Of a DNA stretch of 64,000 nucleotides, positions 20,098 to 57,297 are shown in pieces. The stretch spans positions 310,001-374,000 of the forward strand of contig QPGO01000022.1 in the NCBI GenBank assembly GCA_008632985.1. The letters run 5' to 3'. Below the pieces are notes generated by a model. The model did not search any database, was not told the DNA's origin, and was given only the letters and a program-made list of their open reading frames with translations. Both the position numbers and the translations under genes were made by a program. Source of the stretch: Psammoneis japonica (Eukaryota). The first letter of the stretch is position 1. Each line of letters opens with the position of its first letter.

Positions 20098-20292
20098 GTC
20101 GATCTATCAAGGTGCACATTTAGAACTCGTTCTCGCCTTGCTTGGTGAGACTGTGGAACCTCATCGTAACAATAAATCGCACCTTGCTTGCGACTTCCGC
20201 CGACGCGCGTGCATGCGACGCATGGTGCGTGCGCGGGGCGGCGGGGGTCATCATCGTCTTCATGGCACCGTGCACAGATCTCCCAAGCTGAG

Positions 20293-20873
20293 AGCGGTTG
20301 CCACCGCTTTGCTCATGCGTGCTTCGTATCGGGGATGGACGAGCGCGCTCCTGGAGTGAAACGGTGGGTTCAAACCACTGGTCGCGCGCTCTCTTCTAAA
20401 GTGATGTAAATCTCATGGAATGCATTGTGCACTTGGAGTGGAGATGGCTTTGCTGGCGCTGTGAAAGGTTTTCTCCCTGCCCAAAGCTGGACGGCAGGGC
20501 CAGAGGGCGGGAGAGGTGGGAGCGATTGAACTGCGCTGACGACAGTGGCTTGTCTTTGTCGATCTTGAAAGAATGAGAACAACCAACCCTTGCAGCACGT
20601 TCAACGTGCATGCGTGGTTCAATGGGTGATGGGTCTTCTCCCCGATTCTGGCGCTGGATGAGGACAGCGGTTGCCACCGCTTTGCTCATGCGTGCTTCGC
20701 ATCGGGGATGGACGAGCGCGCTCCTGGAGTGAAATGGTGGGCTCAAACCACTGGTCGCGCGCTCTCTTCTAAAGTGATGTAAATCTCATGGAATGCATTG
20801 TGCACTTGGAGTGGAGATGGCTTTGCCAGTGCTGTGGAAGGTTTTCTCCCTGCCCAAAGCTGGACGGCAGGGC
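20293..20873 (-). repeat. Element 1 3' split repeat block B1-A2-B2
   Basis: 20293-20500 matches 20666-20873 (208 bp, a few transitions). 20522-20667 matches 26592-26761. Confidence 0.92.
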
Positions 20874-20972
20874 TTCCAGCGCCACCCACTGATGTGCAGG
20901 CGGTGCAGCAGCCAGCCAAACATGTCTTGGGATTGGGCGGGTGGGCCCATCTGGAGGGCTGGTGGAGCACTG

Positions 20973-22136
20973 TCACGGGGCGATGGGTGCTTCAGCATTC
21001 GGGTGAAGCACGAAATCGCCCCCAGCGAGCATGGCTTGCGCAAATCCGCGCATGGTGGGCTCGGCTTGGAGGTGCAGATAGCGCAGCATCTCGTCAGAGC
21101 ACCAACGGCCTAAGAGACGGATTGGGTCGGTGTCGACATGGGCACACAGCAGTGCCATTGCTCCTGCTGCACGAAGGCAGCGGGATGAGACATCGGCTGG
21201 TGTGAAGCCCAGGTTCTCGGGACCTGGGGCAACAATGGCAGTGCGGAGTGCCGACGTTGTGTCGGCAGGGGAGATGGCGTGCCACCTGTCGTTTTCAAAA
21301 CACACCCCCAGGGGGGTGTCGGGTTGCGCTCCACAGGTGCGCAAGTGGATGACTCGGCGGACGAGGGCCCTGGTTGGGCAAAGGTCTGGGTGGCCTGACA
21401 GGCCGTGCGCAATGACTTCGCCGCGAACTCCACTTTTCTGGGCAGCAAAAGTGAGGGAGCTGAGGGTGGTGGCGAAGAGGGCAGGGGCCGCGGTGGTGAA
21501 GAGGTTCAGATGTGCTCCGCCCGAGGTTGAACGAAGGTCTGCCAGGCGAAACGGAGTGGTGTCGGATGGCGTGGCTGTGTGTTCACCCGGGCGAAGCAAA
21601 AAGAAAAAGGCGATTGCGATCACATCCGCAATGGCCTTGGTGCCGGCACTGTTGCTGAGGGCGGCGGCATGCAAGATCCAGAGGAGGACACTGACGGGGA
21701 CTGGTTTAACACGATCGGGCGGCGGATCCTGTTTCTTGCAAAAACGGATTTGGCAGGCAAGACGGAAATCCAAGTCGCCCTGGGGTGTGAGACGTGGGTC
21801 CGCGGACCCCATTGCAGCGAACGTCTGCCCAACCGACCGCAAGGCATCCTCAGCGGTGCGCGCCCAGATGGGATTGCCTCTTGGTGCGATGACACCGGCG
21901 CGGAATCGATGGAGGAACACTTGGAGGAAGAGGATGGGATCGTTGGTGTCTTCGAGAAATAGACTGATGGCCAGTTGGCGGCAAAAGTCGATCCAAAGGT
22001 TCCAGTGGGCATCGGCGGCGGAGGCTCGGGAAGTGGCAACGCCGCGCTGCACTGCTTCCTGCGCAGCGCCGAGATCACGTAAGAATGCAGTTCGGGTGGT
22101 GGGGTCCACAGACGCCAAGACTTGCTCTGTGGGCAA
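20973..22136 (-). CDS. Tyrosine recombinase of element 1 (frame open)
   Basis: FFFLLRPGEH (R), QKSG (K), SRCLRAAGA and LLGRWCSDEMLRYL (catalytic Y retained). Confidence 0.88.
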   Translation of the reverse strand: MPTEQVLASVDPTTRTAFLRDLGAAQEAVQRGVATSRASAADAHWNLWIDFCRQLAISLFLEDTNDPILFLQVFLHRFRAGVIAPRGNPIWARTAEDALRSVGQTFAAMGSADPRLTPQGDLDFRLACQIRFCKKQDPPPDRVKPVPVSVLLWILHAAALSNSAGTKAIADVIAIAFFFLLRPGEHTATPSDTTPFRLADLRSTSGGAHLNLFTTAAPALFATTLSSLTFAAQKSGVRGEVIAHGLSGHPDLCPTRALVRRVIHLRTCGAQPDTPLGVCFENDRWHAISPADTTSALRTAIVAPGPENLGFTPADVSSRCLRAAGAMALLCAHVDTDPIRLLGRWCSDEMLRYLHLQAEPTMRGFAQAMLAGGDFVLHPNAEAPIAP

Positions 22137-24270
22137 GTGGAGTTCAAATGCAAAAGGAACGCGACGTTGGACAAGTGTTGCAAGCGCGAAGCGTCGTCAC
22201 CCGCTCGGTTCCAACTGCCCGGGTGGCAATCGTGGAGGCCCACGTAACGGTGTTGGCGTTGATGGTGCGCTTGAAGCCGGAGGAGCTTTGAAGCCGGTTT
22301 GACTGTGGTGGCGATCCCTTGTGTTGCCAGCACATGGCACCAAGGTTGTCGGTGCGGTTGAGGTTGGTGCGCTCGCGGATGTCGTGCGTGTCGGCGGCTG
22401 CGCAGGTGTGGACGATGCTGCCGACCAGTTCGAGGTCGGTGTTGGCAATGGGTCGTGTGGATTCTCATGCATGGCAAGCGAGTCGGAGACATCCTTGGGA
22501 AATCGCAGGCGCCACGCAATGGGGCCTGCGTCACGTTGGATGCGACGTCGGCCAGAGGAACAGCGCAGCTTGGCGGCTCGTGGGACTGCGGTGGGTGTTG
22601 GTGCGATCACCCTGCCGGCCCCGTGGCCGGCAGCGTGTGACAGCCATGAACAGTTGGAGGCAGTGGTGCGAGCTCTTGGATGCGGACGGGACGTGAGTCC
22701 AGAGTCTGGCACAGATCACGGAAATCATCCAGCATGGAATGCACGTTGGCCGCAAGTCGGGTGCGTGAGTCCGGTGCAGTGTGGCAGAGGGCTTCCTGCA
22801 ATTCGGAGAACAGGCCTCGAGAGCCGGGCATGGCTGCCGCGAGTGAACGCAGTTCTCCCAGGAGTTTCTGACAATCCTGAATGGCAACGCGTTTGCGTGA
22901 GCGGGGGAAATCCTTGTAGAGTGTGTCGTGCAGTCGTGCACGCCGGCAAGGAGCAAGTCAAAGTGTCATTGACAGGGTGTCAATTAACCAGCCTAACACT
23001 TCTTTCTGTGTAGACCATGTGGCGTCACCCTTGCGGAGCTTTTTGACTGATGCGGGTTCTTTGCGGGCGGCAACGTCGTTGGAGTCCATGGGGCGGAAAA
23101 CATCGTCGATGGCGTGCAGCAACACGCGATGTATGTTTCTCCGAGCTGCGGCGGACCCCTGCGCGGCGCCGATGAAGTCATCGACGTACATGTCAATGTA
23201 AGCAAGGCGCCGGCGGCGGCTTGGGTTGAGGTGTGGGTCTGGCGACGTTGGAATCGGCACGGCAATTGTTGCCGGTGGTGGAGTTGGCTGGGGTGCATGG
23301 GTTGGCACCCGACTGGATGCCAATTGCTCCAATGGGTGTGGTGGTGCCGTCGCGGCGCGCACTGGCTGTAAGTCAGCTGGGTCTGCTGCCGTCTCGGTGG
23401 CGGCGCTGAAACACGGTGGCGAATTGGCCCATCCCACAGGTGGCCGTGTGGGCATGGCCACCAATGGGGGTTCTCCCGGCAGGTGTGGGAAAACCACCCC
23501 GAGTCGTTGGGCGTCATCGGGGTTAAGGTGCATCCAACAGAAGCCGTCAGCGAGGTCGACTTTCACAAGGTAAACCCGGCCGTGCGATGGATTTGCCAGC
23601 AAGATGCGGTGCAGCAAACGGTCCAAGGTGCGTCCGAACTGCATGGCCTCCATTGGGGTGTTGGGCTGAGTCGCGTCGTTGGTGCCATAGAAAGTGTAGT
23701 CAACGATCGGTCGTGGTCGCCGACCGCACTGGGGCACCACGCCGATGGGGCTCAGACGCAATCCTGGGGTGTCCTTTATTTCCTCATGTGGGAGGACCAC
23801 CCAGAAACCCTTGTCAACGTAGTCAGCCATGTCCTCCCGCAGGAACTCGACATGCTCGTAAGCGGACTTGTGTGGCCCCCTGGCTAAACTTGCTTCAAGC
23901 TCTTGAGGTGTCCAAGGTGCGTCTGCGAGGGTCATGGGGACGCCGCGGCATTTGCAGCTTTGCAGCAGCCTGTGGGCTGGGTGCTTTCGTGTGCGGCGCA
24001 ATGGACCCCAGTCCCCTCTGCCGCTGCGGCGACGCAACAAGTAGCTTGGTCCTCTAAGGTGCAGCAATTTTGTGTCACGTGACATTTGCTCACCCAGTTT
24101 GTCAGTCTGTACAGCGTTTGCAATGGCCTGCGTACGCGAAGTGCTGCGGTCATTGCTGTCTGAGAATCTCTCCGCCTGCGGGGGTGGCGGCACTGCCAAT
24201 GATGCTGATGGCAGCTGAAAAGGCTCTCGGCCCAGAGTCCCCGAACTCGGGCCGTTGCGAAGACCCATTC
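22050..24270 (-). pseudogene. Reverse transcriptase/RNase H of element 1, frameshifted
   Basis: LSPIGVVPQ, RPIVDYTF, KVDLADGF, GWANSP, YVDDF and KEVLGW. A frameshift near 22960 precedes the RNase H part. Left end approximate. Confidence 0.85.
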
Positions 24271-26560
24271 GGTCTTCCAATGCTCTGTTGCCCATGTGAG
24301 GAGGTTCGCCTGGTCGCTCTCCGCGTGGTTGTTGTGATGGTCTGCGACACAACCACAGTTGGAGTTGCACTGCCCTTTCAAGTGATGCGGGAGACACCGT
24401 GGGTTTCCTTGCGCGTCGACCGGCAGGGCGACCCCATTCTGAGTGCAACGCCGCTTTACCTCCCATGACCTAACGTTGGGACGATCACGGACGGCATTGA
24501 ACCGTTCGTCGTATTGGGGGTTGCGCACTGGCGTGTTGTCGCCCGGCACGCCTGGGCGAGGGTTTTGTGAGGCACCACCCACGGGCTGGGTCAACGTGGG
24601 AGTCGTGGTAGTTGGGGCGGGCGCGCTGCCGGACACCAGTGTAATTGCAGGGGGCAGCGTGTAACGCCACGAGTCGTTCCCCTTCGAAGCATCGCCCACT
24701 GCTCGGCGCGCATGGAAAGGGACGGCGGCGTTGTAGGCCGTCTCCTGCAGCCGGAACCACGACATGAGCTCCACCTGCATGTACCGCTGTATGTCCGCCA
24801 CCAGCGTTGGGTTCCGGGAGCACTCCACAGCTAAGTCCTCAGTGTGCGTGTCCAGGTCCTCCCGGGAATCCGTGAAATGCTGGACCACAGGGTGTCCCGC
24901 TCCCAGCAATGTTGCGAGTACGATGCGGGTGCCTTCCAAACAATGTTGGAGAGATTCGATGGTGGTGGTTGCGCGAGCGTCGTCCGGGGTTTCCAGCACC
25001 ATGGCATCGGTGAGGCTGGGCCGGCTGTCACCTCCGTGGATTTGGCGGTACATGGCAGCGCGGTGTGTGATCTGCTGCGCTTGCTCCGGGGTCGTGAGAC
25101 CAAATTGACACGGGTTGACTCCTTGGGCGGGGTCATCCCTGTTGTCTCCCGCAAAGTTGAGGCTCATCAATTTCGATGCCAAACTCACAGTGACAGGGAT
25201 GCGGAAACGCACTCCCAAAGCGCGGCGCGTCTCATCGACTGCGTTCTGGACCTCGGTGATGCGTCCCGCCTTGGAAGCCCGCGCGAGGCGTGGCCACATC
25301 GGCAGCAGCTGATCTTCAGTGTACACTTGGCAGAGCCTCATGAGCTTGCACATGCCCAGATCTCTGAATGCTTGCACCGGCGTCTTTCCTTGCTCGGCGG
25401 CTCATTGGCGTGCCTGTGCGTCAATCCGAGATTGACGCTGCTCGGTCGTGAGTCCATCGATCGCCCTCACCACTGGTGCAATGTGATGGGGCGGAAGTGC
25501 AAGCTCGTTCCGCCCTGGCAGGTCAAGATTGACCTTCTGGTCGAAGTGCCGCATGAGCGCTGCATTTGGGGGCTGGGGCATGGTGAGCCACTCTCGCACA
25601 ATGGCCGATGCGTGGGGGTCCGCCGCCGTGGCGGTGCATGCGACCTTGAGACAGTCCAACAAGGGACGTGTCGCGTCGACCTCATTCCTGGCCGCAGCCG
25701 CTCCAAAAATCCGTGTGAAGGCTTGCTTCGGGGACAGCCCCCCTGGGAGAAGTGTGTTCACGCAGGCGAACGGGACGTGCATCGTAAGTCGAGTGCGCAC
25801 TTCCACCGTGTTTGCTGCATTTGGGTCCGCGGGGTCTGCCAACCCTTCAGGGTGCGCTGTGATCTCCGCAGCCATCCCCGCGTCATCTAGGACAAATGTG
25901 CCAGCGGCGGCAAGACCCATCTCCTCTGGCGGATGCGGGACCACTGTGAACTGGTTGGCGACCAGGTCCCCGGCCAGGGCGCAGGCATTTCCGTCCCACG
26001 GCTGTGCAGGCCCAATGATGGTAGTCGGGTGGGTTGAAACGCGGTGGTGCACCTGAATCGACCCTTCATCGGGTGCGCCCTGCGCGCGGCAGAGGCGCAC
26101 TAATGCCATCGGCACGTTGTGCTCGGACGCCGCGACACCCTCTGTGCCAGGGCCTGAGGGTTGCAACGAGAGGCCCCCTGCACACGGGCGGCAAAGTCAA
26201 TCATGGGCTCTGTGTAGACTCCTTGGTGGGGGTCCTTGGCATTCGTCGCGAAGAAATCGTGGCAGGTTCGGAGGTTCCCCTGTTGGGGAACCTGAGCTGT
26301 GCCGGCCTGCGGTGCCGGTTGGGCAGCTGCCTGTGGCTGCAAGCCCAGCCCTCCTTGCGGCGCTTGGCCAGCGGGTGCACCCGGTGGTGGCTGGGCTGGT
26401 TGCCCCGCTTGTGGCACGGGATGCACCGGCGGTGGTGGTGCACCCGGCGGTGGTTGCGGTGGTTGCCCAGGCGGTTGCCCGTCACCCTGATTCACGGCGT
26501 TTGGCAGTTGGTCATTCGTGCTGCGTGCCGTGTCGAATTCTTTCTGCGACAGAACAAAGA
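24270..26560 (-). pseudogene. Gag-like ORF1 of element 1, frameshifted, with C-terminal CCCH-like finger
   Basis: Fragments 26100-26852, 25402-26166 and 23932-25377 are collinear with element 2 ORF1. Motif CLPHHLKGQCNSNCGCVADH. Confidence 0.75.
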
Positions 26561-26591
26561 TGGCGGAGGTGTCCTGCGTCGCGGTCTTGTG

Positions 26592-26761
26592 GCGATTAAA
26601 CCATGCTAACGACAGTGGCTTGTCTTTGTCGATCTTGAAAGAATGAGACAGACCGGTGACCGAAGAAAAACAACAACCAACCCTCACAGCACGTTCAACG
26701 TGCATGCGTGGTTCAACAGGTGATGGGTGTTCTCCCCGATTCTGGCACTGGATGAGGACAG
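26592..26761 (-). repeat. Element 1 5' repeat A1
   Basis: Matches 20522-20667 with a 24-bp extra segment. Confidence 0.9.
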
Positions 26762-27733
26762 TGGGCACCGTGATGACACCGTCTTGTGGCACACCTCCTG
26801 ACCTTCTCTGCGACATGTGCAGAGCTGTGACTGGTGCCCCATTCCTTGCCACTCTCTAGAACCCGTGGGCAACTGGAGCAGAGCTCCTGGTCCTCTTTCT
26901 CTAGAGAAAATCAAGGATTCGACCAGAGAGAGGGTGAGAGGCACACACACCACCTTGTTTTGGCTGACAGCTTGCCGGGAGCTGCTGGAGAAACAAAGCT
27001 GTGTTCAAAGGAAGAAGACCAAGAAAGTGTGCTGGGAGACCTTCCAACAATTTTTCAAGGAGACAGAAAGGCACCACCTGGAAGCCAAGCATGCCAGTGC
27101 CACACCCTTGCAAAAAAGAAGCTCTGTGCTCACCCTTTGTCCTCAGAGCAAATCTCGCACTCCCGCTGCACAGGAGCACTTTTTCTTGGGGCACTGTGTT
27201 GCTGTGGAAGCTGTGCAAACAATGAAATGCATCTGGGGTCCAAAAGCTGGTCACAATCAAAATGCCAGCCCAGCGAGGCAGTCACCCAGTGCAGTGCCAG
27301 TGCATCAAACCAGGAGGCTGCCAGGGAGATGGCTCCAAAAGTGTGGCCAGGGTGGGGCTGTCCAGAGAGTGAGCCCAACCCAACAAGAAATCAGGAGGCT
27401 TGACAGAGTGGCTTCAATCTGCCAACATTTTGTTGAAAAGAAGCCAGCCCAATGTGCAAGAAACTTGTGGAGCACAGCTCTGCCACACCACACCAAGGGG
27501 ACAGCACAAGCAATGGGGCTCTAGCCTCCAGAGCCTGGGCCTCAGAAGAAAGCTGGCCAGGTGGACACAACTGCATGCTCTGGGAGAGAGAGAGGTGCCC
27601 ATGTTGAAACAGGCCATCAGTGTTGGCCTTCTTTTGGGGCACAGATTCAGGCAGCATTTTGTCCACAGCAGTGGACGGAGGGGATTTGCAGAGGTTGTCA
27701 GGGGGGGGTCAGTGGCAACAAGCAATGGTTTAG

Positions 27734-30700
27734 ATTGTCACAGGCTTGCAACCCAGCAAACAACTCCTGCATGTTGCAGGAGCAACACCTCTCTGCACTG
27801 TTGCCATCTTTTTGCCTGCATTTTTGTTGCTGCTGCTGATGTGTTCCAGCCCTCTGGTGGCTGCACATGTGTTCTGGCACTCACAAAAAAGACAACTGTG
27901 CTGTTTGCATGCAATTTTGGATTGTCATAACAAGGCTTTTGCTGCCAAAAGGCTGGTGGGCACAGCCTGAGTCTTGCAAGCATTGGATGCAAGCAAGGGC
28001 TGCTGCACACAGCAAACCGCTGGAGAGTGGAGGTGGCGCCAATGTTCTGGTGCAGCCACACACCCCAATTTCTTTTCAAAATTGTGTGGCAACACATGGA
28101 ACCACTCATGAACAATGATCTCTGACAACAATGGACATTCTTCAGTTTTACAGCTCTCTTTGACACAGCACTGGAATGACAGCATCAAGCACAGAGATGA
28201 GGGACACCTCAGTGTGAAGCAGCTTTGTGTGGTGTGGCACCTCTCATGACATCTGGCAAAGTCCTCTTCTCTGCCTGAGACATTTGCAATGACAGCAGCA
28301 CTGGATGCCAAAGAGGCAGTCAGCAAAGACCAGAAAGTTGGCACATCCTCTCATCTGTCTGACTCCTGTGATGGTGGCATGTGTGTGTTGTCTCATGCTC
28401 AAAATGTGCAGCAAGAGGGCAGGATGCTGACAAGCATTTTCTTGCTCCAAACATGGGTTACAAAAGACCAGAGACCAAGCAAAAAATTAGAGGCACTTGA
28501 CCACTGCAAAAAGGAACACCAAAAAGGGACCACAAAAGTTGCTTTTCTCCAAACGCTCTCTCAACACACAAGGCTGTGGGGGGTTGCAAGAACAGCAGCA
28601 ATCTTGTCAAAAAAATTGACACAGTGCACCATGGAGAGGTGTGTTTTGGGTGGGCTGCAGAGCAGCCAAAGCTTGTGCTCTGAGTTTTTGTCCTTCTCTG
28701 TGGTCAATCATGCAATCCCCCATGTGCTGGTGCAAAGTTTTGATTGGGGGGGGGTTCAGCTGACCTGCTCCACTGTGTGCAGCCAGAGATGCTGTGCAGA
28801 TTATGATCAGGCATCTGGGTTGGACAGATGAGCAGATCTCTCTGCTTCTCACTCTTTCTCACCAGTGCATGTGTTGCCACCATTGCCAGCTTGCAGGGAG
28901 GTCCTTTGCACTTGTTGCTCTTGCCCCATTGCCACTCTGTCAGGTTGTGTGGCCCTGCTTGTTGTGATGCACATCTTCTTCTGCATCTCAACTTCCACTT
29001 TGATTGGTTTGGTTTGTGAGCTGAAGAACAATTCCATGTCATTTTTTATCCTGGAGGCAATGTTGCATCATCATCAGTCTCCACTTGACAACACAAAGCA
29101 GACACAAGGTCCAACCACCAGTGGTTGTGTGGTGGCCTGCAATCCTTGTCCCCCCCCTTCCCATCTCAAAGCAATTGTGTTGCCTGCAACATGGAGTTGT
29201 TGAGGTGCTCTTGAGATTCCCAATCAATCCAACAGTGCTTGCATGCAACAGAGATCAACCAACAAATTGGCTTCTTCAACTTTTGGGCTTCCAACAATGT
29301 GGTGTTTTCTTCCCATCTTGGAGCATCAGATCCAGCACACAGGTTGGACATCCCCAAACAGCCAAATTTGTGAGCATTGAAGTTGAGGCTTTGACTCCCA
29401 TGAAGACCTCTTCCAGACACAAGCCATCAAAATCCATTCATGGAGTGTGGCTCCACAAGAGCACAGAGTGACTCATGACCATGGGCCACAAATTTGTCTC
29501 AGCTGCATCCGGCATCCAGCCATCAGGCTGCAGTCAGCATGAAACATCATCATTCTGGCCCTTTCAGGGATGCCATCACATGCAGTGATGCACGCCAAAC
29601 ACAAAACCCACTGAGCTTCCTGCCTTGGCCCTTGCACTCAAGTTCCTTGACAAATTCTTCATTGGCAAATGTGCCACCATCAGACTGACAAGCCCAAATG
29701 AAAACACCAGCAGTGAAGTGGCCTTCCTCTCAGAAGCTGCTGCTTTGCTCTTGACAGCTTCAAAAGTTTGTTCCTGAGGACACTTGATGATGGACAGACA
29801 CCTGACCTGAGGCAATGTCAATGAAAATGGTGCTGCCACCATGCTTGTCTGCCTCCTTGGATTTGCCCCAAGATTTAAACAAACAACCATGAACCAATGA
29901 AACATGTTCATTGGTTGCCACCAGCTGTCCAACAAGACAAAGAATGTGATGGAACCTTGACAGTTTGAACCACACCTGTTGGATTACAAGCATCCAACCA
30001 AGCTCCTGATGCATGGTGCACTTGAGATTCAGCACAGAAGCAGATCTGATCAATCTTGCACTGTGGCCTGAGTGACCCTGTCAAGCCAACCACTTGGTGT
30101 GATCAAAAGAAAGATGACCTGAATGAAAGTGCTGTTGCAAAAGCTTCTTCTGCTTGATGATGGACAAGCTCTGGTTCAATTTGTCTGTCAGCACACACAC
30201 GCAAGCATGGGGCTTCTGATCCAACACTGAACATGGGGGTTCCTTCCAATTGCTGCAGGCAATTTGTTGGTCTTGTGGTGTGGCATGGCAGTCATGCCAC
30301 TGTCTTTCCAACAGAAGAAACCCAGTTCTTTTCATGTGTTGACTTGAGCTAACAACCAACCCCACTGCCATGCTTGTCATGCCCACAATGTGTCACACTC
30401 AACAACTTCACCAGAGAATTTTAGAGTGCACAAGCACTGCATCTGGATGAAGCATTCTCAAGAACCTGTGTCATCAAACACCAACCATTTTTGACAACAC
30501 CAAATCCTTTGAAGTCAACAAAACTGCCAACACTTGATGACAAATGAGGAAGACTTTCTTTGTCAAACAACTTGATGGCTCCAGAAACAAAATCATTCAC
30601 ATTGCATTCAGAGCTGTTGTTTGCACCCAGGTCAAGTGTGATTTCAAAATGCTTGTCTTGCAGAGATGAGAAAGACATTTGAATGTGATCAACCTGTTTG

Positions 30701-31920
30701 CACAAGTTGATGTTCACAAAATGGCACACAATCACTCAGAAAATTTCAATGGATGGCCAGTGATCTCCTTGATCTCTTTGAGTGGTTCATTGGAACAACA
30801 ACCACAACAAGAAACTTGAAATCAAGCAAGTTGCTCAACTTCTTGGAACAGTCATGTGCTGTGCTGTCTCTTGGATGGATTTTGTTGCAGACCTTGTTGA
30901 AAGCCAACAAATGCCAAAGAACAGCCCACAAATGAGTGAATCAATGATGAAAAATCAAGCTGTGGATGTCTTTTTGAATCTTCTGAAACAATTGCTCTTT
31001 AGATGAGACTTCAGGATTTGGTGGTTCCTTCTTCTTGGGCATCTCAATGTCACATTGTCACAGGCTCACAACCCAGTGACAACTCCCATGTGTTGCAATG
31101 GTGACACCTCCATGCTGAAGCTGCCTGTTCCCCTCTGCCTGTTTTTTTTTGTTGCTGCTGCTGATGTGTTCTCCACTTCCCTGCACATGTGAGTCAGCAC
31201 ATGCAAAAAAGACAACTGTGCTGTTTTGAAGCAGTTTTGGATTTTTCTTGTTGTTGAGATTTTGCTGCCAAAAGGCTGGTGGGCACAGCTCCTGTGTCTT
31301 GTGAGCATTCTTGGGGGCATGCAAGGGCTGCTGCTGTACACAGCAAAATGCTGAAGAGAGCTGGCACCAGTGCATTTTGGCATGGCAATGCACCCCAGTT
31401 GCTTCAAAAAATTGTGGCAAATCATGGAACTGCAGATGAACAACAATGATCTCTGACAACAACAGATGTTGAGTCTCATGGCTCTCTTTGACACAGCACT
31501 GAAATGACACCACCCAGTGCAGAGATGAGACACCTTAGTGTGAAGCAGGCTTGAGTGGTGCGGCATCTCTCATGACATCTGACAAAGCCTTCAATTGCCT
31601 GAGACATTTGCAATGACAACAGTGCTGCCAGATGTCAAAGACTCAGCAAAGACATGTTTTTGGAGATCAGGTCACTGATTTCCACCCACAGTGTTGGCAT
31701 GATCATCTCATTCCTGACTCTTCTCTGGGTGGCATGTGTGTGTTGTCTGATGCCCACAATGTGCAGTGCTGATTTGCATTTCCTCGCTCCAAACATGGTT
31801 CATGAGAGACCAGAAACCAAGCAAAATGTCAGAGGCACTTGACCACTGCAAAAGGAACACCAAAAAAGCACCACAAAAGATGCTTTTTCTCTGAATGCCT
31901 TTTCATTTCTCAGTGCACAA
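27734..31920 (-). mobile_element. Old, internally deleted Copia-type element between two ~840-bp diverged direct repeats (LTR-like)
   Basis: 27734-~28570 aligns with 31054-~31920, and both begin ATTGTCACAGGCT. Between them are GAG-pre-integrase (NQSLS..QKKLLQQHFHSGHLSF) and integrase (GQVSVHHQVS, QSDGGTF) remnants on the minus strand. Confidence 0.65.
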
Positions 31921-32899: not shown

Positions 32900-33120
32900 A
32901 AAAAAATCACATCTTGCATCATTCACACATGGCATCCATGATCTTCAAAACCAAGGTTGCTCCCAATGAAGCCACCAAGCCTCCATGCTTGGTTTGCACT
33001 GGCAACCATCTGTTTGATGACCACCCTGCCCTCCAGAGCAATCCATGCATCAAGGGGTTTCACACTCATTTTGCCAGCTCTTCAAGCATGAAGCTGCAAA
33101 ATGTGCCTCTGCTTTGGTGC
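32900..33120 (+). pseudogene. Possible Copia gag zinc-knuckle remnant
   Basis: PCLVCTGNHLFDDHPALQSN resembles the gag C-terminus of the 36-43 kb Copia (HECPALNN). Confidence 0.3.
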
Positions 33121-36100: not shown

Positions 36101-36158
36101 CCAGTGTTTTGTGTGTTGTGTGCCAGTGATGATGATGTGTTTTTTGGCACATTCCAAG

Positions 36159-42954: not shown

Positions 42955-43116
42955 GCGACAGACATCCGAGATGGGGAGTGCGCTCCCTTGTGTTGGACAG
43001 ACTGGCACAGATGGCATGGAGAGATCTCTCCTTTGCTCACTTTCTTTCTCATCCAGCACATGATTGTCATCTGTCCCAGATGTCAGTTGGGTTGTCCCAA
43101 TGCCGGCAGTTCACAA
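42955..43116 (+). repeat. Second copy of the same LTR-like repeat, in inverted orientation
   Basis: ACAGACATCCGAGATGGGGAG...CTCCTTTGCTCACTTTCTTTCTCATC...GGCAGT matches the reverse complement of 36159-36331. Confidence 0.8.
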
Positions 43117-48479: not shown

Positions 48480-50610
48480 CTCTCCATTTCTCTGGGCTGA
48501 TTTCTTTCCTGCCTGATGACAAATGAGAGCCAGATTTTGCTCCCGACTGTTGATTGCAAGAATGGCATCTTAAACATTTTTGCAAATTTTGCCATGCTGC
48601 CACCCCACCAGAGGAATGTGAGTGTGACAGTTTGCTCACAACCACCTCAAGAGAAACTCCACACTTGCTTGGCCACAATGGCAGAAAGGCAAGCACAACC
48701 AATTGGATCAGTTCCATGCATGATGTCAAAAATCAGGTGGCACTTGATGATCCCAATGCTGTTGTGATGGTTCATCCTGTGCTGCTCCTGCTCTCCACTG
48801 CCTGCAGTCCACACACTTGTCCTGTGTTGAGCAGCCAGCCAATCCAACAGTTGTTTGTTTTGTGCTCTGTGCTTCAACAGGACATCAAGTTTGCTCTGGG
48901 GATGGTTGAGATGCACATGCCCACTCTTGGCAACCATCTGCTCAGCTTTGTGTGCAGGTTGATGAAACATTTTCAACATGGCACAAGCCATGTTTTGACA
49001 TCAATCTTGATTGGTCAGCAGCACTTCCTGCCCATTCTCCACACACTGCAGGGTCACCCAGAAACTGGTGTTTTCTGGAGAATCATGTCAGCTCCATTTT
49101 GACTGATGCCAAGCTTTTTTTGCAACAAAGTGCACAACAAGTGCAGCCACACTTCCACCTTTCAGGGCAAGCACATTCTCTTGTTCTGACAGCAGGTGGA
49201 CAATTTCTCTGTTGTGTGTCCTGAGGAATCATGTTCATGATCAAGACTTTTGATGAACTTGGTGCTGCTCTTCAACTTCCCTGCAAAAACTTCATTCTCT
49301 TCTCAGTGGAAGGGGGGGATCTCCAGCCATGTCAAGTCAGAATCTGATCAATGTGGCTGTGACAAGCAATGGACATGGAATCATCACACTGGTGGATGTC
49401 CACATTGTTGGACTCAGCACACAGTTCAATGCACTTGCTGTCAGGCCACACTGAGGATGTCAGTGAAATTTTCTGCACATCCGAGTCATTTTTTGATGTT
49501 GGCCCCATTGAGAGATCTTCAAAACATGTGGGGTTGGATGAGACTCAAGGTTTTGGCTGTCAAAACTCGCTGCATCTCCTGCTCCAGTTCACTGTGTTGC
49601 ATTGAAGGGCGATGCTGCAAAATGCATTTGACATGTGAAGCATTGGGGCATCAACTAGAAGAAGCCACTCAAGGACCTGAATTGCCTGGGTGTCCTTTTG
49701 AGTGCCTTGTGGTGGACCCAACTCTCCCTGCAACCCCCTCTGCGGATTCTCCCACACAACTCTGCTTGCTTTCGTGAATGTGCTTCATGGCAATGACCTT
49801 CAAAACCATCACTCCACCACAGGATGTGGTTGCATTTTAGCAGGTGGGGCCATTTCTTGCCACTGCAAGATGCAAACAGTTGCTGTGACTGGCTCTGCAG
49901 AGAAGCTGAGGAGTTCTGCTCCACTGGCAACACTGCAAGGGGAAACACATTCATCCTGTGCCATGTCCTCAAGGAGCTTGGTTTCCCCAAGATGTCCCAG
50001 CTCCACTCTTTGTTGACAACGAATCAGCCACAAAGATCATCAACAATTGTGCTCCTGCTGAGAAATCCTGCTGCACATTGACATCCAATGTGGCTTGCCA
50101 TCCAAGGCCAGAGAAGGGCGCTGCTGGTCACATTGTCAACCTGCATGTTCCTGGTGTTGTTGACCCCAGCAATGGTCTCATCTCACCAAGGCTCTTGGCT
50201 TGACACTGCATGCCTGTCTTGCTTGCCAGCTTGTCAGACACTGTTGCTGAGTCTTTCGTCCCACATCTGCTGACACTGGCATCTCTGCCGAGTTGGTGCG
50301 CTGACCCCCCTTTTTTTGTGTTTTTGTGTTTTGCCCCCTTGTTTGGTTGGCTGGTCATCCGGTCTGCATTGCCCTGGATGTTGTCTGCTGCTGCCTTCCC
50401 TTTTTCATTCCATCTGTGAACTGCATTGTCTCTTTTTTGACATGCCAGGTCAGGGGAGGTGTCATTTGACCTGCTCTGCTGTGTGCGGCCAGACTGTGCA
50501 TGTGCAGAGGATGTTGGCCAGGCATCTCTAGATTGAACAGACAACAGGAGCAGATCTCTCTGAGATCTGCTTCTCGCTCTTTCTTGCCAGTGCACATGCT
50601 GTCACTGACA
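48480..50610 (+). mobile_element. Copia RT/RNase H fragment with PPT and 3' LTR
   Basis: TLQGHPETGVFW, RQVDNF, LFVDNESATKIINN and HVPGVVDP. PPT CAGGGGAGG at 50451-50459, then TGTCA...TGACA at 50460-50610. Confidence 0.75.
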
Positions 50611-50751
50611 CCAGTTTGTGGCAAAGTTCCTTGCGCTTGTCCCTTTTGCTGTCGCTGCTCCAGTCAGGTGAAATGCCATGATGGTGCTGCGAGATGCAGG
50701 GTTGGGTGGTGTTTCCGGGTCCCCATGGAGTGCAACAATGGGATGGAGTGG

Positions 50752-51211
50752 GTGACTGGCGTCACTTTGCTCGCACGACTTCTTGCGGTGATCTGATTCT
50801 AGAGACAGGCAACCAGTGGGGATGGGAGGACTTTGCTGGCGCAGTTGGTCCCTTTCCATTCCCAAGCTGGAATGGCATGGCCAGAGGGAGGGAGAGGTGG
50901 GAGCACTTTTAGACTGTCCATTCGGCTTGCTGCTGAAGCTCTTCGGAAGAATGAGCAACAGCAGCTTGCTTCCAAATGCCAACTTGAACGCGTTCAATGT
51001 GGCAGAGAGGGGGGTGACTTCCCGGTGCGTCGTCAACGGGCAATGAGGTCATCTCCCCTTGTCGGTCTTTACGAGGCCAGTGACTGGCATTGCTTTGCTC
51101 GCACGACTTCTTGCAGTGATCTGACTCTAGAGACAGGCAATTGGCAGGGATGGGAGGACTTCACTGGCGCAGTTGGTCCCTTTCCATTCCCAAGCTGGAA
51201 CGGCGTGGCCA
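50752..51211 (-). repeat. Element 2 3' split repeat block B1-A2-B2
   Basis: 50752-50883 matches 51080-51211 (132 bp). 50902-51079 matches 56956-57139. Confidence 0.92.
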
Positions 51212-51319
51212 TTCCGGCGCCACCCACGTACACTGGTGCAGGCAGTGGCGGTGTGATTGGGTGGGTGGGTGGGCCCGGCTGGAAGGCTGAGGCGCGGCTT
51301 GTGATGGAATCACGGGTCG

Positions 51320-52463
51320 GCGGTGGCAAGGGGCACGTCGGCAATTGGGGTGCAGGACAAATTGGCCACCAGCCAACATGCGTGTTGCGAAATTGCGCAT
51401 GACGGGTTCTGCTTGTAAGTGGAGGCAACGGAGCATCTCCTCGGAGTGCCATCGGCCTAAGAGGCGGATCACGTCGGTGTCAACATGGGCACATAGGAGG
51501 GCCATGGCACCAGCCGTGCAAACAGCGAGCGGAGACATCGGCGGGTGTGAAACCCAGCGCAGCGGGGCCGATTGCCAGAATTGCGGTGCGTAGGATGTTG
51601 GCAATGTCGGTGGGAGAGACACGGCACCAGGTGTTGTCATGCAAGCACACACCAAGGGGCGTGTCTGGTGTGGCGCCAAAGGCGCGGAGATGTTTCACGC
51701 GACGGATGAGGGCGTGTGTCGGACAAAGGTCAGGGTGTCCGGACAGGCCAAGGCCCATCACTTCACCGCGCACGCTGTTCTTCTGTGTGGCAAAGGTGAG
51801 CGTGCCAAAGGTGGCGGTGTCGAGGTGTTCATCGGTGCAGGTGAACAAATCGAGGTGAGCACCTCCAGCGGAGAGGCGAACGTCCCCCAACCGAAAAGGA
51901 GTGGTGTCGGAAGGGGTGGCGGTGCATTCGCCTGGCTGCAGGAGGAAGAAAAAGGCCAAAGCAGTCATGTCTGCGATGGCTTGGGTGCCCGGATGGTTGG
52001 TTGGGGAAGCGGCATGGGCAATCCACAAGAGGACAGCAACGGGGACCGGTTTGACCCGGTCTGGCGGAGGATCCTCTTTCTTGTAGAAACGGATTTGGCG
52101 GCCAATGCGGAAATCCATGTTGCCTTGGAGGGTGCACCACGGGTCCGGGGACCCCATTGCAGTGAACGTTTGGCCAATCGACCGCAGGGCACCCTCAGCG
52201 GTGCGTGCGCGGACAGGATTGCCACGTGGGGCGATGGCGCCTGTGCGGAGTCGGTGCACAAAAACTTGGAAAAAGATGACTGGGTCATCGACGTCTTGTA
52301 AGAGAGGGTCGAGGGCCAAGTCGTGACAGAAACTTCGCCAGAGGTCCCAGTGGGTGTTGCTGGAGCTGGCAGAAGAAGCGGCAACGCCGTGGGCAACGGC
52401 GTGTTGTACAGCGCCGAGATCACGTAGGAACGCAGCGCAGGTGGCGGGGTCCAAAGGCGCCAA
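51320..52463 (-). pseudogene. Tyrosine recombinase of element 2, inactivated
   Basis: LLQPGEC (R->Q, Y->C), a frameshift near 51515, and LGRWHSEEMLRC (catalytic Y->C). Confidence 0.85.
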
Positions 52464-55400
52464 GAGGGAGTCTGTGGGTGATGAGTGTTAAAATGTTGCA
52501 AGAAGGCACGGTCAGACAATTGTTGCAAGCAAGAGGCATCATCTGCAGCGGTGTTCAACGGTCCCGGCAAACAGTCGTGGAGCAACAGGTGGTGGTGGAA
52601 ACGTTGGTGGTGACCTTGGCATCGGAGGAGGGGTGCTGCGACCTTCGTAGTCGTGGTGGAGCCCTTGCGTTGACGAAAGAGAGTGCCGGTGTTGTCCGTG
52701 CGGTTAAGCACTGTGCGCTCTCGAAGGTCGAATCAGTCCGCCGCGGCACAGGATTGCACAATGCTGCCGACCAACTCCAAGTCGGTGTTGGCAATGGGGC
52801 CGCGGGGATTCTTAAAGGTGGACAGTCGGTCGGTGACTGCCCGGGGGAAGTGCATGCGCCAGACGACAGGTCCGGCGTTATGTTGTGGTCTCCGACGGCA
52901 AGCAGTGGAGCAACGCAGGGTGGTGCTGCGAGTGACCACTGACGGCGCAGGGAGGAGGACGCCACCTGCGCCATGACCGGCTGCATCATGGCAGCCTGTG
53001 ACAGTGGGCAACAGGGGGACAAGTTCTTGGATGCGGGTGGGGCGGAGATCGAGCCCACGGCACAACAACCGAAAATCGTCCAAGATGTCATGAAAGTTGT
53101 GGGCAAGACGAACTCGCCCGTCGGGTTTGGTGTGGAGCAATGCTTCCTGGAGTTCAGAGAACAGATTGCGAGACCCGGGAATGCCGGGCGTGAGGGATCG
53201 CAGTTTGCCAAGGAGCTTGTGCAGGTCGGCAAGCGCTGTCCGCTTGCGATGGCGGGGAAACCATTCGTACAGCGTGGTGCGGAGGCGCTCGCGGCGTCGC
53301 GGCGTAAGGCGGATGGTCATGGACAAAGCGTCAATGATCCACCCTAGGACCTCCTTCTGTGTTGACCAAGTGGCGTCGCCTTTGCGGAGCTTTTTGACTG
53401 AGATTGGCTCCTTGCGACTCGTGTGGTCTTGGTCGTCGAGTGGACGAAATGCATCGTCAATGGCGTGCATTGTCGTGCGATGCACATTGCGCAGCGATTG
53501 TTTGGAGCCTTGGGCGGCGCCGATAAAGTCATCAACTTAGATGTCGACACATTGGAGGCGCCGCCGGCGGTGGTGCGCGATGTGTGGATCCAGCGTGTCT
53601 GGCGCTGGGACAGCGACAGACGGATTCACGTCAGCAGTGACAGGGTGGTGCTTTGGTGGTCGGCCATCAAGGCAAGGCTCGAGTGGGTGTTCCGGTGCCT
53701 GATGGTTGCACACGAGCTGGCGATTGGCAACGTCTGCGACCGTCTCGGTTGCTGCACTAAATGCCGGTGGTGAGTTGGACCATCCCATGGGCAGCCGAGT
53801 TGGCATGGCTGCCAGGGGAGGTTCCCCGGGAAGGCGGGGAAAAACCACACCTGGTGTGGGTGCTTGCTCGGGCGCCAGCTGCATGCAGCAGAAACCATCA
53901 GCCAAGTCAATCTTCATCAGACAGACGCGGCCCTTGTTTGGATTGGCAAGGAGAGCGCGCCGAAGGATGCGGTCCAGCGTGCGCCCGAACTGCATAGATT
54001 CCATTGGCACGTTTGGCTGTGTAGAAGGATTGACACCGTAGAACGTGCAATCCACAATCGGTCGTGGTCCACGTGCGTGTTGTGGGACCACACCGACGGG
54101 GCTCAGCCATGGGTTGGGTTCATTCTTGACATCGTCGCATGGAACAACCACCCAGAAACCCTTGTCGACACAGTCAGACATGTCTTTGCGCAAAAACTCG
54201 ATGTGTTCGTAGGCGGACTTGTGTGGTCCTCGAGCGATGCTACCTTGGAGCTCAGCGTTGGACCATGGCTCGTCTGCAACAGTGACCGGTGCCCCTCGAC
54301 ATTTGCAACCGGTGAGCACTCGGTGTGCTGCATGCTGTCGCGTTGTCACCAATGGTCCCCAGTCACCTCCACCACTGCGCAGATGCAACAAGCAACTGAG
54401 GCCTCTAAGGCGCAACAATTTTGCATCGCGTGTAATTTGCTTGCCCAATTTGTCAGTCAGTGCTGATGCGGCCACATCCTGTCCACGTGTTGTGGGGCAG
54501 AAGCGCCGTTTTCTAGACTCCACTTGCAGGGGTTGTGGATGCATGGGCTTGTGTGCCCGTGCAGGAAGGGGCTCTTGGTTCCATGTCCCCGAGCAGGAAC
54601 CATTGCCGATGACCCATTCGGTCTTCCAATGTTGCACACCCCACGTGAGAAGGTCGACCTGCTCCTGCTCCATGTGGTTGTGATGATGATTGGCCCATGA
54701 TCCGCAGTTGTTGTGGCACTGTCCAATGAAATGGCATGGGAGACAACGTGGCGCCCCTTGGGAATCCGTGGGCAAGGCGATGTTGTCCCGGGCGCAGCAC
54801 TGCTTGACGGTGCGAGAACGCACATTGGGACGCTCCCGCAAGACCGTGAAGCGCTCGTCGCACTGTTTGTTGCAGATGATGGAATTGTCGCCAGGCGCAT
54901 TTATGCGGCTTGGTCCCGGCTGTGGCTGCCCAGTGGTCTGCAAACGCGGCATCGTGTGTGGTTGAAGGACAGATGTCGGTGGGTCGAGACGCCAATGGCA
55001 GGCGCCTTGTGCGGCCTCAGCCACCACTGGGAGCGGTTGAAATGGGACAGGGTTTTGTGAGTGCGTTTGCGCCTGGAACCAATGGCACATCTTCACCTGC
55101 GCGTGACGTTGTAGGTCCGCTGGTGACATCAGGTGCGACACCACTTGCGCCGCCAAATCGTTCACGCAGACGTCCATTGACTGGCGCGTGTGAGTCAACC
55201 ACTGCACCAGTGGATGTGCTGTGCCAAAGGCTGCAGAGAGAACGATGCGCAGACCGTCGAAAGACTGTTGAACCGCCTGTATCGCAGTGGCCACCATGGC
55301 GTCGTCCGGGGCCTCCAACACTCGCGCATCTGCCAAGGAAGGTGTGCCGTCACCTCCATGAATCTGTTGACACACAGAGCTGCGACAGGCGGTCTGCTCG

Positions 55401-56938
55401 GCTTGCTCTGGTGCAGTGACACCGAACAAGAAGGGGGCAATTCCCTGAGTCAACTCGTCCTTGTTGTGCCCAGCAAAGTTGACTTGGGTGAGTTTTGTGA
55501 CCAGGTTCACGGTCACCGACACATTGAAGTGCACGTGGTGTGCTTGCCGTTGCTTGTCGATTGCATTTTGGACGGCAGCAATTTGGCCGGTCTTGGGAGA
55601 GGCCGCCAGTTGCGCCCAGAGTGGTGGTGGGTTGGCTTCGTGATGCACCTGGCACAAACGCATGAGTTTGGCAATGCCAAACTCTCCGCAGAACTCCGTT
55701 GGTGTCTTGCCGCGCAATGCCACCTGTTGGCGCGCTTCCGCGTCTAAACGTTGTTGGCGCTGCTCTGCTGTTAAGCTCTCAATGGCTGTGAACACTGGTT
55801 CGAACTGGCGCGGTTGCGGCGGTTGGCCCACGCAGTGCGGAAGGTCATGCTGCACCACCGCGTCAAAGAAACGAACAAGTGCTTCGTTGGGTGGCTGCAC
55901 CATCGTTGGCCATGCTTGCGCTGCTTCGGACACATGTTGGTCCCATGCTGTCGTGCAACACGCCACTTTCAAAAAGTCCAGAAGTGGCCTGCATTCGTTG
56001 ACCGCATTGGCAGCTGTGACAGCTCCCAGCACCCAGGCAAATGCTTGCTTTGGCGTCAGCGGCATTGAAAGCAAGAGATTAACATGCGCGAATGGCACCA
56101 TCATGGTGTTCCACGTCCTGACCTCAACCGCGTCTGGGTCGCTCGGCTGTGCCTGTGGGTGCAATCCTTCTGGGGTCGTGACAATGTGAGCTTGCAGCGC
56201 TGCGTCGGTCGGCACCCATGTGCCGTGTTTGGCCAACTGAAAGGCATCATCAGTGATGGGTGCAAGTTGGCATTGTCCCATCGTCAGGTCGCCTGCGAGC
56301 GCAAAAAATTGTCCATCCCACGGTTGTGCTGGTCCTGCCACCGTGATCGGGTGCTGGGTTGCACGATGGAGCACCTGTGTGACTCCCATGTGGTTGCTTC
56401 CTTGCACCCAGCAGTGCTGCACCAGTGCCACAGGCAAATCGTGCAAAGAAGCTGCTCCAGCACGGGTCCTCAGCACGTTGGGATTGTAGCGTGACTGTCC
56501 TTGCAGTGGGACCATGAAGTCCTGCATGATTTCCGCACAGTTGCCGGCGTGCGGATCCTTGATGGCGTGCGAGTGGTGATCCCGACAGGTCCAGATTGCT
56601 GCTGGTGGTGCTGGAACTCCCTGCCCCACGGGACCTGCTGGCGGCATGGGTGGCACTTGAGGTGCCGGCTGTTGGGGAGGCGCTCCAGGGGCTTGTCCTC
56701 CCTGCGCTGCGGCAGGTTGTGCCGCTGCTCCTGGTGCTGCCGGCGCCACTGGATGCACCGGTGCTGGCGGCATGTTCTGGGCATTGTTGGCCGCCGGAAT
56801 CGGTTGTTGATTTTGTCCGCCCCCAGGTTGTTGTGCCACCGCAGCGGCGTCCGGCGGTGGATTGTTTCCGATGTTTCCGTCTTGGTTCACAACGTGTGAC
56901 GTTCCTGCGAGCTTTGCAGATGCAGCGGCGGATGGCAT
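52400..56938 (-). pseudogene. Gag-RT-RNase H of element 2: in-frame gag-RT, stop at the YVDD tyrosine, frameshifted RNase H
   Basis: The 1133-aa ORF ends ATC TAA GTT GAT GAC (I*VDD) at 53537. It continues through KEVLGW, CHDAAGHGAGG and NTDLELVG. Confidence 0.85.
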
Positions 56939-56955
56939 CCTCCGCCGAACACAAC

Positions 56956-57139
56956 AGCGCTTTTAGACTATCTATTCGGCTTGCTGCTAAAGCTCTTCGG
57001 AAGAATGAGCAACAGCAGCTTGCTTCCAAACGCCAACTTGAACGCGTTCAATGTGGTAGAGCGGGGGGTGACTTCCCGGTGCGTCATCAACGGGTAATGA
57101 GGTCATCTCCCCTTGTCGGTCTTTACCGGTACGAGGCCA
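56956..57139 (-). repeat. Element 2 5' repeat A1
   Basis: Matches 50902-51079 with a 6-bp extra segment and retains TpA sites lost in A2. Confidence 0.9.
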
Positions 57140-57297
57140 TAGTTCCTGATGTTTGTTGTGTGTGAGGTGTGCGGTGTGCGGTGTGCGCGACGCAAATAGA
57201 GAGAAAACCAAAAAAAGCTTACCGGTATGTAGTTAGTCTAGCAGAAGCATATCTTTACATCTCACGCATTGCTGCACTCTGTTGTGGCCAAGAGACG

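Follow-up and report, generated by a model that had tools for sequence, protein, structure and literature searches.

A TA-depleted island of retrotransposons in a diatom chromosome and its likeness to TpA-directed hypermutation

In fungi, repeat-induced point mutation (RIP) converts C:G to T:A pairs, a process that makes TpA from CpA and lowers the GC content. A process with the opposite outcome appears to have acted on the island that is the subject here, a tract at positions 20174..57195 (no strand assigned) of a 64,000-nucleotide stretch of DNA (the window: contig QPGO01000022.1, positions 310,001 to 374,000, assembly GCA_008632985.1) from Psammoneis japonica. With RIP the island shares a dense, regional hypermutation by transitions that kills transposons and leaves the neighbouring genes intact. 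However, the direction is reversed, in that TpA has been destroyed and GC raised. The host, on the sequence evidence, moreover belongs to the diatoms, and hence to the stramenopiles, rather than to the fungi.

A closer counterpart is found in the chlorarachniophyte alga Bigelowiella natans. In mutation-accumulation lines of this organism 231 of 302 nuclear point mutations lie in two integrated viral regions, and 230 of these 231 are A-to-G or T-to-C changes, all at TpA; their rate, about 6e-7 per site per generation, compares with 3.5e-10 at baseline (bioRxiv 10.64898/2026.01.13.699255). The accessible text of the same preprint further states that hypermutation occurs in some lines only, that low-TpA coding sequences are enriched for reverse transcriptase (RT) and DDE domains, and that an ADAT2-like enzyme deaminating adenine in DNA is put forward as the cause (bioRxiv 10.64898/2026.01.13.699255). 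An initial annotation of the window, which knew of no described mechanism of this kind, is in that respect outdated by this 2026 report of TpA-only A:T-to-G:C hypermutation. It is also the only report of TpA-directed A:T-to-G:C hypermutation that a literature search returned, and the search, with most subscription journals outside its scope, gave nothing on such hypermutation of TpA in any stramenopile, diatoms included.

How does the island compare with this system? The tract, some 37 kb of a diatom nuclear chromosome, is made up of a nest of retrotransposons, in which two young elements, E1 and E2, flank an old decayed core. It matches the B. natans signature in every feature that could be tested: the changes are A-to-G or T-to-C, lie at TpA and affect either strand; they are restricted to DNA that is foreign or silent and have a rate far above background; and GC is raised, TpA depleted and CpA and TpG enriched. 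The two cases also differ in a number of ways. The host of the one is a rhizarian, whereas that of the other is a stramenopile. The B. natans targets are giant-virus and virophage inserts that, in the same text, are still TA-rich (rho 0.45; 9.2% TpA), whereas those of the island are retrotransposons rather than integrated viral DNA and are near saturation, with an observed/expected ratio (o/e) for TA of 0.05-0.19. The mutation-accumulation lines of B. natans show the events as they arise, whereas the island is known from its end state alone. Finally, the accessible text of the preprint reports no extended ATA/TAT preference. The diatom host, the end state of the process and a preference for ATA/TAT are thus what is new here.

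The reading favoured for the island, to which we would give a probability of about 0.6, is an in-place, TpA-specific hypermutation of A:T to G:C in silenced mobile DNA, probably through adenine deamination, with the decay of methylated CpG (5-methylcytosine, 5mC) added to it. After insertion of an element, T:A would become C:G at TpA on either strand, giving TG or CA, through an enzyme that deaminates adenine to hypoxanthine (read as G) within 5'-TpA-3' on silenced or heterochromatic DNA; it would be the same process as that observed in the B. natans lines. In the older core, deamination of methylated CpG would remove CG as well, with both processes converging on TG and CA. The effects would be the destruction of tyrosine codons (that of the catalytic tyrosine of E2 included), a raised GC content and the removal of most TAA and TAG stops, and the process may serve as a genome defence. 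An additional A:T-to-G:C process aimed at TpA had already been proposed in the initial annotation, and the flux of tyrosines, the twin repeats and the normal TA content of related elements support it. It also withstood each of the three refutations named there, namely a lack of TpA specificity, families natively free of TA, and a consensus artefact.

The compositional signature was followed through dinucleotide o/e ratios, which were computed in 1-kb windows across the 64-kb window and then by zone (flanks, E1 plus E2, and core). Across 20200-57130 there are 181 TA dinucleotides, where 2093 are expected from the base composition, giving an o/e of 0.086 compared to 0.625 in the flanks. In the 1-kb windows the flanks (1-20000 and 57001-64000) have a GC content of about 0.48, a TA o/e of 0.42-0.97 and a CG o/e of about 1; the outer parts of the island (20001-27000 and 51001-57000) have a TA o/e of 0.09-0.40, a GC content of about 0.60 and a CG o/e of 0.73-0.99; and in the centre (27001-50000) TA falls to 0.02-0.14 and CG to 0.02-0.23, with TG and CA at 1.45-2.15. 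When taken by zone, the flanks stand at TA 0.62 and CG 1.00; E1 plus E2 at TA 0.19, CG 0.86, TG 1.43 and CA 1.49, with GC 0.60; and the core of old decayed transposons (approximately 26800..50700, no strand assigned) at TA 0.05, CG 0.10, TG 1.81 and CA 1.84, with GC 0.48. Neither AT (0.89-0.96) nor AA/TT (at least 1) nor GC is depleted in E1 plus E2 or in the core. Expressed as density, TA occurs 7.5 times per kb in E1 plus E2 compared to 35.6 in related elements (about 21% survival), and 3.5 times per kb in the core compared to 41.6 in the flanks.

The signature is confined to the island, whose borders are sharp, within about 100-200 bp. On the left the density of TA is normal as far as 20173, after which none occurs before 20327; on the right 2 TA fall in 56000-56963 and 9 in 56964-57140, within the last E2 repeat, and from 57197 the density is normal once more. 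These border positions and the values by 1-kb window and by zone bear out the description in the initial annotation of an island almost without TA, with a core almost without CG and rich in TG and CA, lying between normal genes with a switch within about 200 bp. Outside the terminal repeats, to the left of E1 (20174-20289) and to the right of E2 (57141-57195), are short TA-free tracts rich in TG/CA and in CG, of which the right one resembles a (TG)n run. Either the process has hit host DNA here or the tracts are older transposon scraps.

Both young elements are Ngaro/DIRS-like tyrosine-recombinase (YR) retrotransposons on the minus strand. E1 (20290..26764) is recognised by its split direct repeats and by homology in ORF1, RT and YR, and E2 (50752..57126) is about 60-67% identical to it. 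Self-comparison of the window gives the same order of parts in each, namely A1, ORF1, RT, YR and B1-A2-B2. Split direct repeats with internal repeats downstream of YR define the Ngaro/PAT-like elements, which belong to the DIRS order of retrotransposons (PMC4157794). E1 and E2 are like these in having ORF1, RT and YR together with the A1 ... B1-A2-B2 repeats, and differ from them as dead copies with frameshifts and with conserved tyrosines replaced.

Within E1, and all on the minus strand, the 5' terminal repeat A1 lies at 26592..26764, the gag-like ORF1 at 24268..26196 (found by tblastn to the family consensus and by hidden Markov models, HMMs, at E 1e-83 to 4e-129), the RT region at 22919..24103, the YR open reading frame (ORF) at 20976..22196 and the internal and 3' repeats at 20290..20873 (B1 20663-20873, A2 20522-20670, B2 20290-20500). 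In E2, also on the minus strand, repeat A1 (56956..57126) stands at the island edge, ORF1 and the beginning of RT form a single fused frame (53540..56962, 1141 stop-free codons) with RT continuing in 52736-53536, the YR region (51344..52463) contains one frameshift, and the remaining repeats occupy 50752..51211 (B1 51080-51211, A2 50902-51072, B2 50752-50883). The loss of TA is patchy in E1, where 23000-25000 retains 28 TA (5-9 per 500 nucleotides, nt) compared to 2-4 per 500 nt elsewhere in the element; the part of E2 homologous to this region has no such sparing.

The assignment of these elements draws on a large set of homologous proteins, 1307 of which match the YR ORF and 2473 the ORF1 plus RT frame. 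HMMs made from them recover the ORF1, RT and YR segments of both elements at E values of 1e-83 to 1e-209 (RT 4e-162 and 1e-113; YR 2e-173 and 4e-137), and there is one weak extra match to the RT model inside E2 (54516-55016, E 0.05). With Pfam-A (E of at most 0.01, 15 island ORFs scanned) no domain is found in any E1 or E2 ORF, RT and YR (within 20976-26196 and 51344-56608) being missed as well. The methyltransferase domain, which PAT and DIRS elements have and Ngaro elements lack, likewise has no Pfam match in the E1/E2 ORFs, but Pfam missed the RT too.

The core holds a different class of element. The DIRS-family HMMs find nothing credible there, the best match outside E1/E2 having an E value of 0.51. 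Among 112 ORFs scanned with Pfam there is a single match, to the SH3-like C-terminal integrase domain PF25597 (SH3_retrovirus, E 1.9e-6), which belongs to a Copia-type remnant at 36990..39124 on the minus strand with the integrase C-terminal SH3 domain in 38348-39124 and a probable RVT_2 reverse transcriptase in 36990-38315. For the latter ORF, comparison with a protein atlas returns RVT_2 in 30 of 30 matches (top score 0.94, 169 shared features), which serves as a lead only, and a homologue search with the Copia fragment among longer proteins gave no match. The loss of TA is therefore carried by at least two transposon superfamilies.

Fundamental to the interpretation is the direction of the change, which can be read from the proteins that the elements once encoded. 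E1 and E2 were compared with majority consensuses derived from their ORF1, RT and YR homologues. At least 70% of the homologues agree at 458 columns for E1 and 459 for E2, and at these conserved columns E1 is 85% and E2 83% identical to the consensus. Among the 22 positions at which a tyrosine is conserved, the two elements together have 4 Tyr, 12 Cys, 3 His, 2 Phe and 1 Leu, such that 15 of the 22 are now Cys or His. Changes in reverse do not occur at the conserved columns (Cys to Tyr 0/16, His to Tyr 0/28). As a control, 80 related elements keep 503 of 598 conserved tyrosines, with 4 Cys and 2 His in their place. No amino acid but tyrosine has TA in all of its codons, and TAY becomes a codon for Cys or His when it changes to TGY or CAY; there has therefore been a net flux from TA to TG/CA, and on this protein evidence the direction of change is from TA to TG/CA. 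E1 and E2 retain different tyrosines, which therefore indicates independent mutation events. The use of conserved tyrosines to set the direction had been put forward in the initial annotation and holds, with 15/22 replaced by Cys or His compared to 6/598 in the relatives and none in reverse.

For instance, PGEY reads PGEH in E1 and PGEC in E2, and DGFY reads DGFC in both, as had been noticed earlier, in E1 within the RT region. The five conserved tyrosines of the YR are represented in E1 by 2 Cys, 1 His, 1 Phe and 1 that is kept, the catalytic one of MLRY, and in E2 by 3 Cys, 1 Leu and 1 that is kept. The claimed change of MLRY to MLRC thus applies to E2, where the catalytic tyrosine is among those now Cys, and not to E1. 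Conserved arginines have also changed, with 15 of 102 now Cys, Trp, His or Gln, reflecting CpG decay. The stop of ORF1 was considered as a further case of TAG to TGG, as the family ORF1 ends in HWKTE-stop and both E1 and E2 have TGG at this point; the relatives, however, have TGA in 13 of 15 pattern matches (some of them doubtful), so that an origin in TAG is unsupported and the site was dropped as evidence.

A similar pattern is seen in a public protein, P0123 (JGI/IMG, from a 1465-nt contig), which is 67% identical to the YR of E1. At the five columns in which tyrosine is conserved it has His, Cys, His, Tyr and Cys, including MLRC at the catalytic position, whereas 37 other homologues have tyrosine in 173 of 185 cases. 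There are 2 tyrosines in its 391 residues. To judge from these replacements, it probably represents a further copy affected by TA hypermutation, on some other contig or in some other organism.

It may be asked if low TA is simply native to, or selected in, these families, either by avoidance of UpA in the RNA or through a TA-poor donor, and in keeping with this TA is moderately low everywhere (o/e 0.62 in the flanks and 0.64 in relatives). The relatives were obtained by a YR alignment scan of metagenome contigs, of which the best 80 of 508 confirmed relatives are considered throughout. Their median TA o/e is 0.64 (range 0.38-0.88), with CG at 0.91, TG at 1.14, CA at 1.12 and GC at 0.55. The idea of directed TA loss withstood this comparison, as even the lowest of the 80 relatives, at 0.38, lies well above the 0.19 of E1 plus E2. 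Moreover, catalytic and other conserved tyrosines have been lost, non-coding repeats and both strands are affected, and so is the unrelated Copia-type remnant. A native or selected lack of TA is consequently very unlikely as the explanation.

The twin repeats inside single elements allow individual events to be observed. The available text on these elements describes the split repeats as identical at insertion, with A1 equal to A2 and B1 equal to B2 (PMC4157794). Dinucleotide states were compared in the four twin pairs of E1 and E2 over 663 aligned nt. Sites with TA in both twins number 5, with TA opposite TG 4, with TA opposite CA 4 and with TG opposite CA (doubles) 8; for CG there are 30 sites with CG in both, 6 with CG opposite TG and 6 with CG opposite CA; and all other mismatches come to 7. 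A TG/CA double is expected where one ancestral TA (or CG) has mutated in both twins on different strands. From the CG counts the per-copy loss of CG is about 0.17, which by our own arithmetic predicts less than 1 double from CG; nearly all 8 doubles therefore come from TA. Of the sites attributable to an ancestral TA, 16/21 differ between twins, compared to 12/42 CG sites and 7 other mismatches in the 663 nt, so TpA is distinctly more mutable than other contexts. As about 80% of TA has been lost against only 7 unrelated mismatches between twins, rough arithmetic would place the rate at TA about 100-fold or more over background, and several times higher than that of CpG decay in the same DNA, provided that the twins were identical at insertion.

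The individual pairs illustrate this well. In the A pair of E2, A1 retains 7/7 of the shared TA sites and its twin A2 2/7, with the 5 sites that differ being 2 TG and 3 CA, whereas 3/11 CG sites differ. The A pair of E1 shows two TA/TG sites (atTAa/atTGa and gcTAa/gcTGa) and 3 TG/CA doubles, the B pair of E1 shows cgTAt/cgCAt, and the B pair of E2 has 4 TG/CA doubles. All of the paired examples given in the initial annotation were found, including the 5/7 TA sites; its estimate of about 3 changed CG sites out of 13 is amended to 3/11. Beyond the twins, TG/CA is the commonest double mismatch between E1 and E2 (67/702, the next class having 33), and three repeat pairs in the core have 17, 5 and 6 TG/CA doubles.

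CpG decay, probably through 5mC, is visible as a second process in this DNA. DNMT5a-dependent CG methylation in diatoms is directed chiefly at transposons (PMC9998398). The decay accounts for the CG o/e of 0.10 in the core and for the 12/42 CG sites that differ in the twins. It cannot, however, remove TA, and in E1/E2 80% of TA is gone while the CG o/e is still 0.86.

The distribution of the changes between strands bears on where and when they were made. Read on the sense strand, A-to-G is represented by Tyr to Cys (12) and T-to-C by Tyr to His (3), Leu to Pro (7), Val to Ala (5) and Ile to Thr (2). Both strands have been hit, since sense A-to-G and T-to-C are both seen and the o/e values of TG and CA are near-equal, and in this sense the signature is symmetric. 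Hypermutation of parasitic nucleic acids by deaminases is also known from the ADAR and APOBEC enzymes of animals, which edit retroelements and viruses, and ADAR has a preference for a 5' U. Were the RNA or complementary DNA (cDNA) of an element edited by an ADAR/ADAT- or APOBEC-like enzyme before integration, copies would arrive already mutated, and such an origin would suit the fact that every identifiable component of the island is a retroelement, the excess of sense Tyr to Cys (12) over Tyr to His (3), and the 5' U preference of animal ADARs (Discussion, bioRxiv 10.64898/2026.01.13.699255, in its accessible text). These enzymes act on RNA or single-stranded cDNA, however, and leave a one-strand signature, whereas the island has frequent sense T-to-C (the replacements of Leu, Val and Tyr counted above), twins in one inserted copy that differ at TA and carry TG/CA doubles, and borders that are shifted from the element ends. 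Thus the 116 bp beyond the last repeat of E1 (20174-20289) have 0 TA, although the density of the flanks would predict about 5 (this tract may be older transposon scrap), and the outermost 180 bp of E2 are spared. The older core, furthermore, is more depleted than the young elements, and the B. natans target is resident DNA that is not a retroelement. Editing before integration is accordingly considered unlikely. Action on resident DNA is favoured by the same observations, namely both strands, differing twins, a core more depleted than the young elements and shifted borders, and would make the genomic DNA itself the substrate of the TpA-directed process.

What is it about a given TA that makes it susceptible? 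Among the surviving TA, those with a 5' A neighbour (both strands taken together) make up 8.2% in E1 plus E2 and 6.0% in the core, compared to 23.7% in the relatives and 26.6% in the flanks, and a chi-square test on the three-class ATA/TAT flank count gives p values of 4.5e-6 and 6.6e-9. When E1 plus E2 are set against the relatives, survival by trinucleotide is 7% for ATA/TAT, 23% for GTA/TAC, 24% for CTA/TAG and 32% for TTA/TAA; for the core against the flanks the corresponding values are 2%, 5%, 11% and 21%. An extended preference for ATA/TAT of this kind would be expected of an enzyme. The trinucleotide gains by which a change of ATA to ATG would be set against one of ATA to ACA are confounded by subfamily composition and CpG decay.

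The base that is attacked is a separate matter, as the same signature and targeting could come about if it were the thymine of TpA, through oxidation or hydroxymethylation to a form that pairs wrongly with G, or through error-prone repair at methylated chromatin. The dinucleotide is self-complementary, which makes each TA-to-TG event a T-to-C event on the other strand, and no gene in the window points to an enzyme. We know of no thymine-modifying system that gives clean T-to-C at TpA, and the sole experimental precedent, that of B. natans, favours an ADAT2-like adenine deaminase, itself by inference. An attack on thymine is thus rather unlikely, and adenine would be the probable substrate of the hypermutation favoured here.

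The reality of the sequence can be judged from a public sequencing run, X1, which contains 61% of sampled words of 50700-59700 and whose contigs were aligned to 45000-62000. Over 45597-49773 (4177 nt) they depart from the window at 6 places and over 49775-50577 (803 nt) at none, at a depth of 68-69 compared to 56-57 in the flanks, and so match the core that is free of TA and CG. This agreement excludes a consensus error peculiar to this assembly, the artefact that had been raised as a possible refutation in the initial annotation. An error of assembly, or of base calling at modified bases, would retain some standing in that run X1 may be the very sample that was assembled and hence not fully independent. 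It is nonetheless scarcely credible, given the contigs that agree with the core, the coherence of the changes at the protein level (Tyr to Cys or His) and the same signature in P0123 from another contig. Among 40 of the 272 variant places that were listed for X1, there are TG/CA double pairs at 47252-3, 52103-4 and 55876-7, and many have CG in other copies where the window has TG/CA.

The depth of the same contigs gives an indication of copy number. Over the E2 interval (50670-57473) the summed contig depth is 356-999, compared to 56-57 in the single-copy flanks, from which the E2 family would have roughly nine copies at an identity of at least 90% in the X1 sample. The core is at single-copy depth (at least 90% identity) and yet is the most TA-depleted zone; two short high-copy pieces lie within it, at 45567-46133 and 50103-50669. 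RIP needs duplication; in the island the E2 family stands at about nine times single-copy depth and the core, which is the most depleted, at single-copy depth. Copy number also bears on GC-biased gene conversion among copies, which together with CpG decay might raise GC, as is seen in E1 plus E2 (0.60 compared to a median of 0.55 in relatives), and for which the multi-copy E2 family would provide partners. Such a bias should nevertheless touch all weak-to-strong mismatches, whereas AT stands at 0.96 and 0.89 and AA/TT are not depleted, and it should not be most effective in a core that is single-copy. Biased conversion therefore seems a most improbable source of the signature.

A number of points weigh against in-place deamination of adenine at TpA in silenced DNA, or sit uneasily with parts of it. 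The excess of Tyr to Cys (12) over Tyr to His (3) may reflect a strand bias, which would not be expected if the process were purely symmetric. As TA is palindromic, attack on adenine and attack on thymine look alike in the sequence. The twin argument assumes that the repeats are identical at insertion, and the replication model of these elements is less settled than that of long terminal repeat elements; if other copies of the E2 family share the TG/CA states of E2, part of the mutation predates insertion. The borders of the island are inexact with respect to the element ends, which fits a chromatin domain as the target at least as well as the repeat restriction (dependence on homology) proposed in the initial annotation, and targeting by chromatin state would be in keeping with this. 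There is, finally, an unevenness at the edges: the outer copy retains TA in the A pair of E2 and the B pair of E1, whereas the A pair of E1 is reversed, the copy nearer the core retaining 2 TA that the outer copy has lost. Protection at the edge was considered as evidence for chromatin spreading and set aside, as two pairs fit and one does not.

The parallel between a diatom and a chlorarachniophyte invites a broader, and at present tentative, suggestion. The two groups may possibly share an ancient DNA adenine deaminase common to the Stramenopila, Alveolata and Rhizaria (SAR), which would read 5'-(A)TpA-3' on silenced double-stranded DNA and erase TpA from transposons and viruses, acting as a mirror image of RIP that is vegetative and independent of duplication. 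Were this the case, tyrosine codons, TATA-like promoter elements and TAA/TAG stops would all be removed from transposons and integrated viruses. The diatom case suggests that the process is widespread across SAR protists and that its targets include transposons in addition to viral inserts. A natural adenine deaminase of double-stranded DNA would, if true, also be of interest to base-editing research. Diatoms include a species in which knock-outs with clustered regularly interspaced short palindromic repeats (CRISPR) have been made (PMC9998398), and candidate deaminases and a link to DNMT5 methylation are directly testable.

There are also practical consequences for annotation. The island contains 66 ORFs of at least 150 codons, which are so many and so long because TAA and TAG have been erased, and their length is therefore without meaning as a sign of function. 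Islands of this type thus yield long false ORFs and mimic GC-rich foreign DNA, and at the same time hide transposon genes from standard domain searches, as with the RT of E1/E2 that Pfam missed.

The genes that border the island are ordinary. On the left is a ZPR1 zinc-finger protein gene (18190..19803, minus strand) with normal TA, from which the host was recognised as a diatom; its protein shares 62-66% identity with those of pennate diatoms (the named matches being Fragilaria and Mayamaea), none of the recorded proteins being identical to it. On the right is a gene for a protein with an Apg6/Beclin BARA domain (59448..60518, plus strand), also with normal TA. The other flanking genes encode Hsp70-like, UPF0489, ADP-ribosylglycohydrolase and Rad51-like ATPase proteins. 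In a second public run, X2, contigs are almost lacking over the island, which says nothing about expression. Unlike those of X1, the X2 contigs skip an 80-nt GT..AG interval (59598-59677) inside the Apg6/Beclin gene as well as a 246-nt interval (58385-58630); run X2 may thus be cDNA, and the two intervals may be introns.

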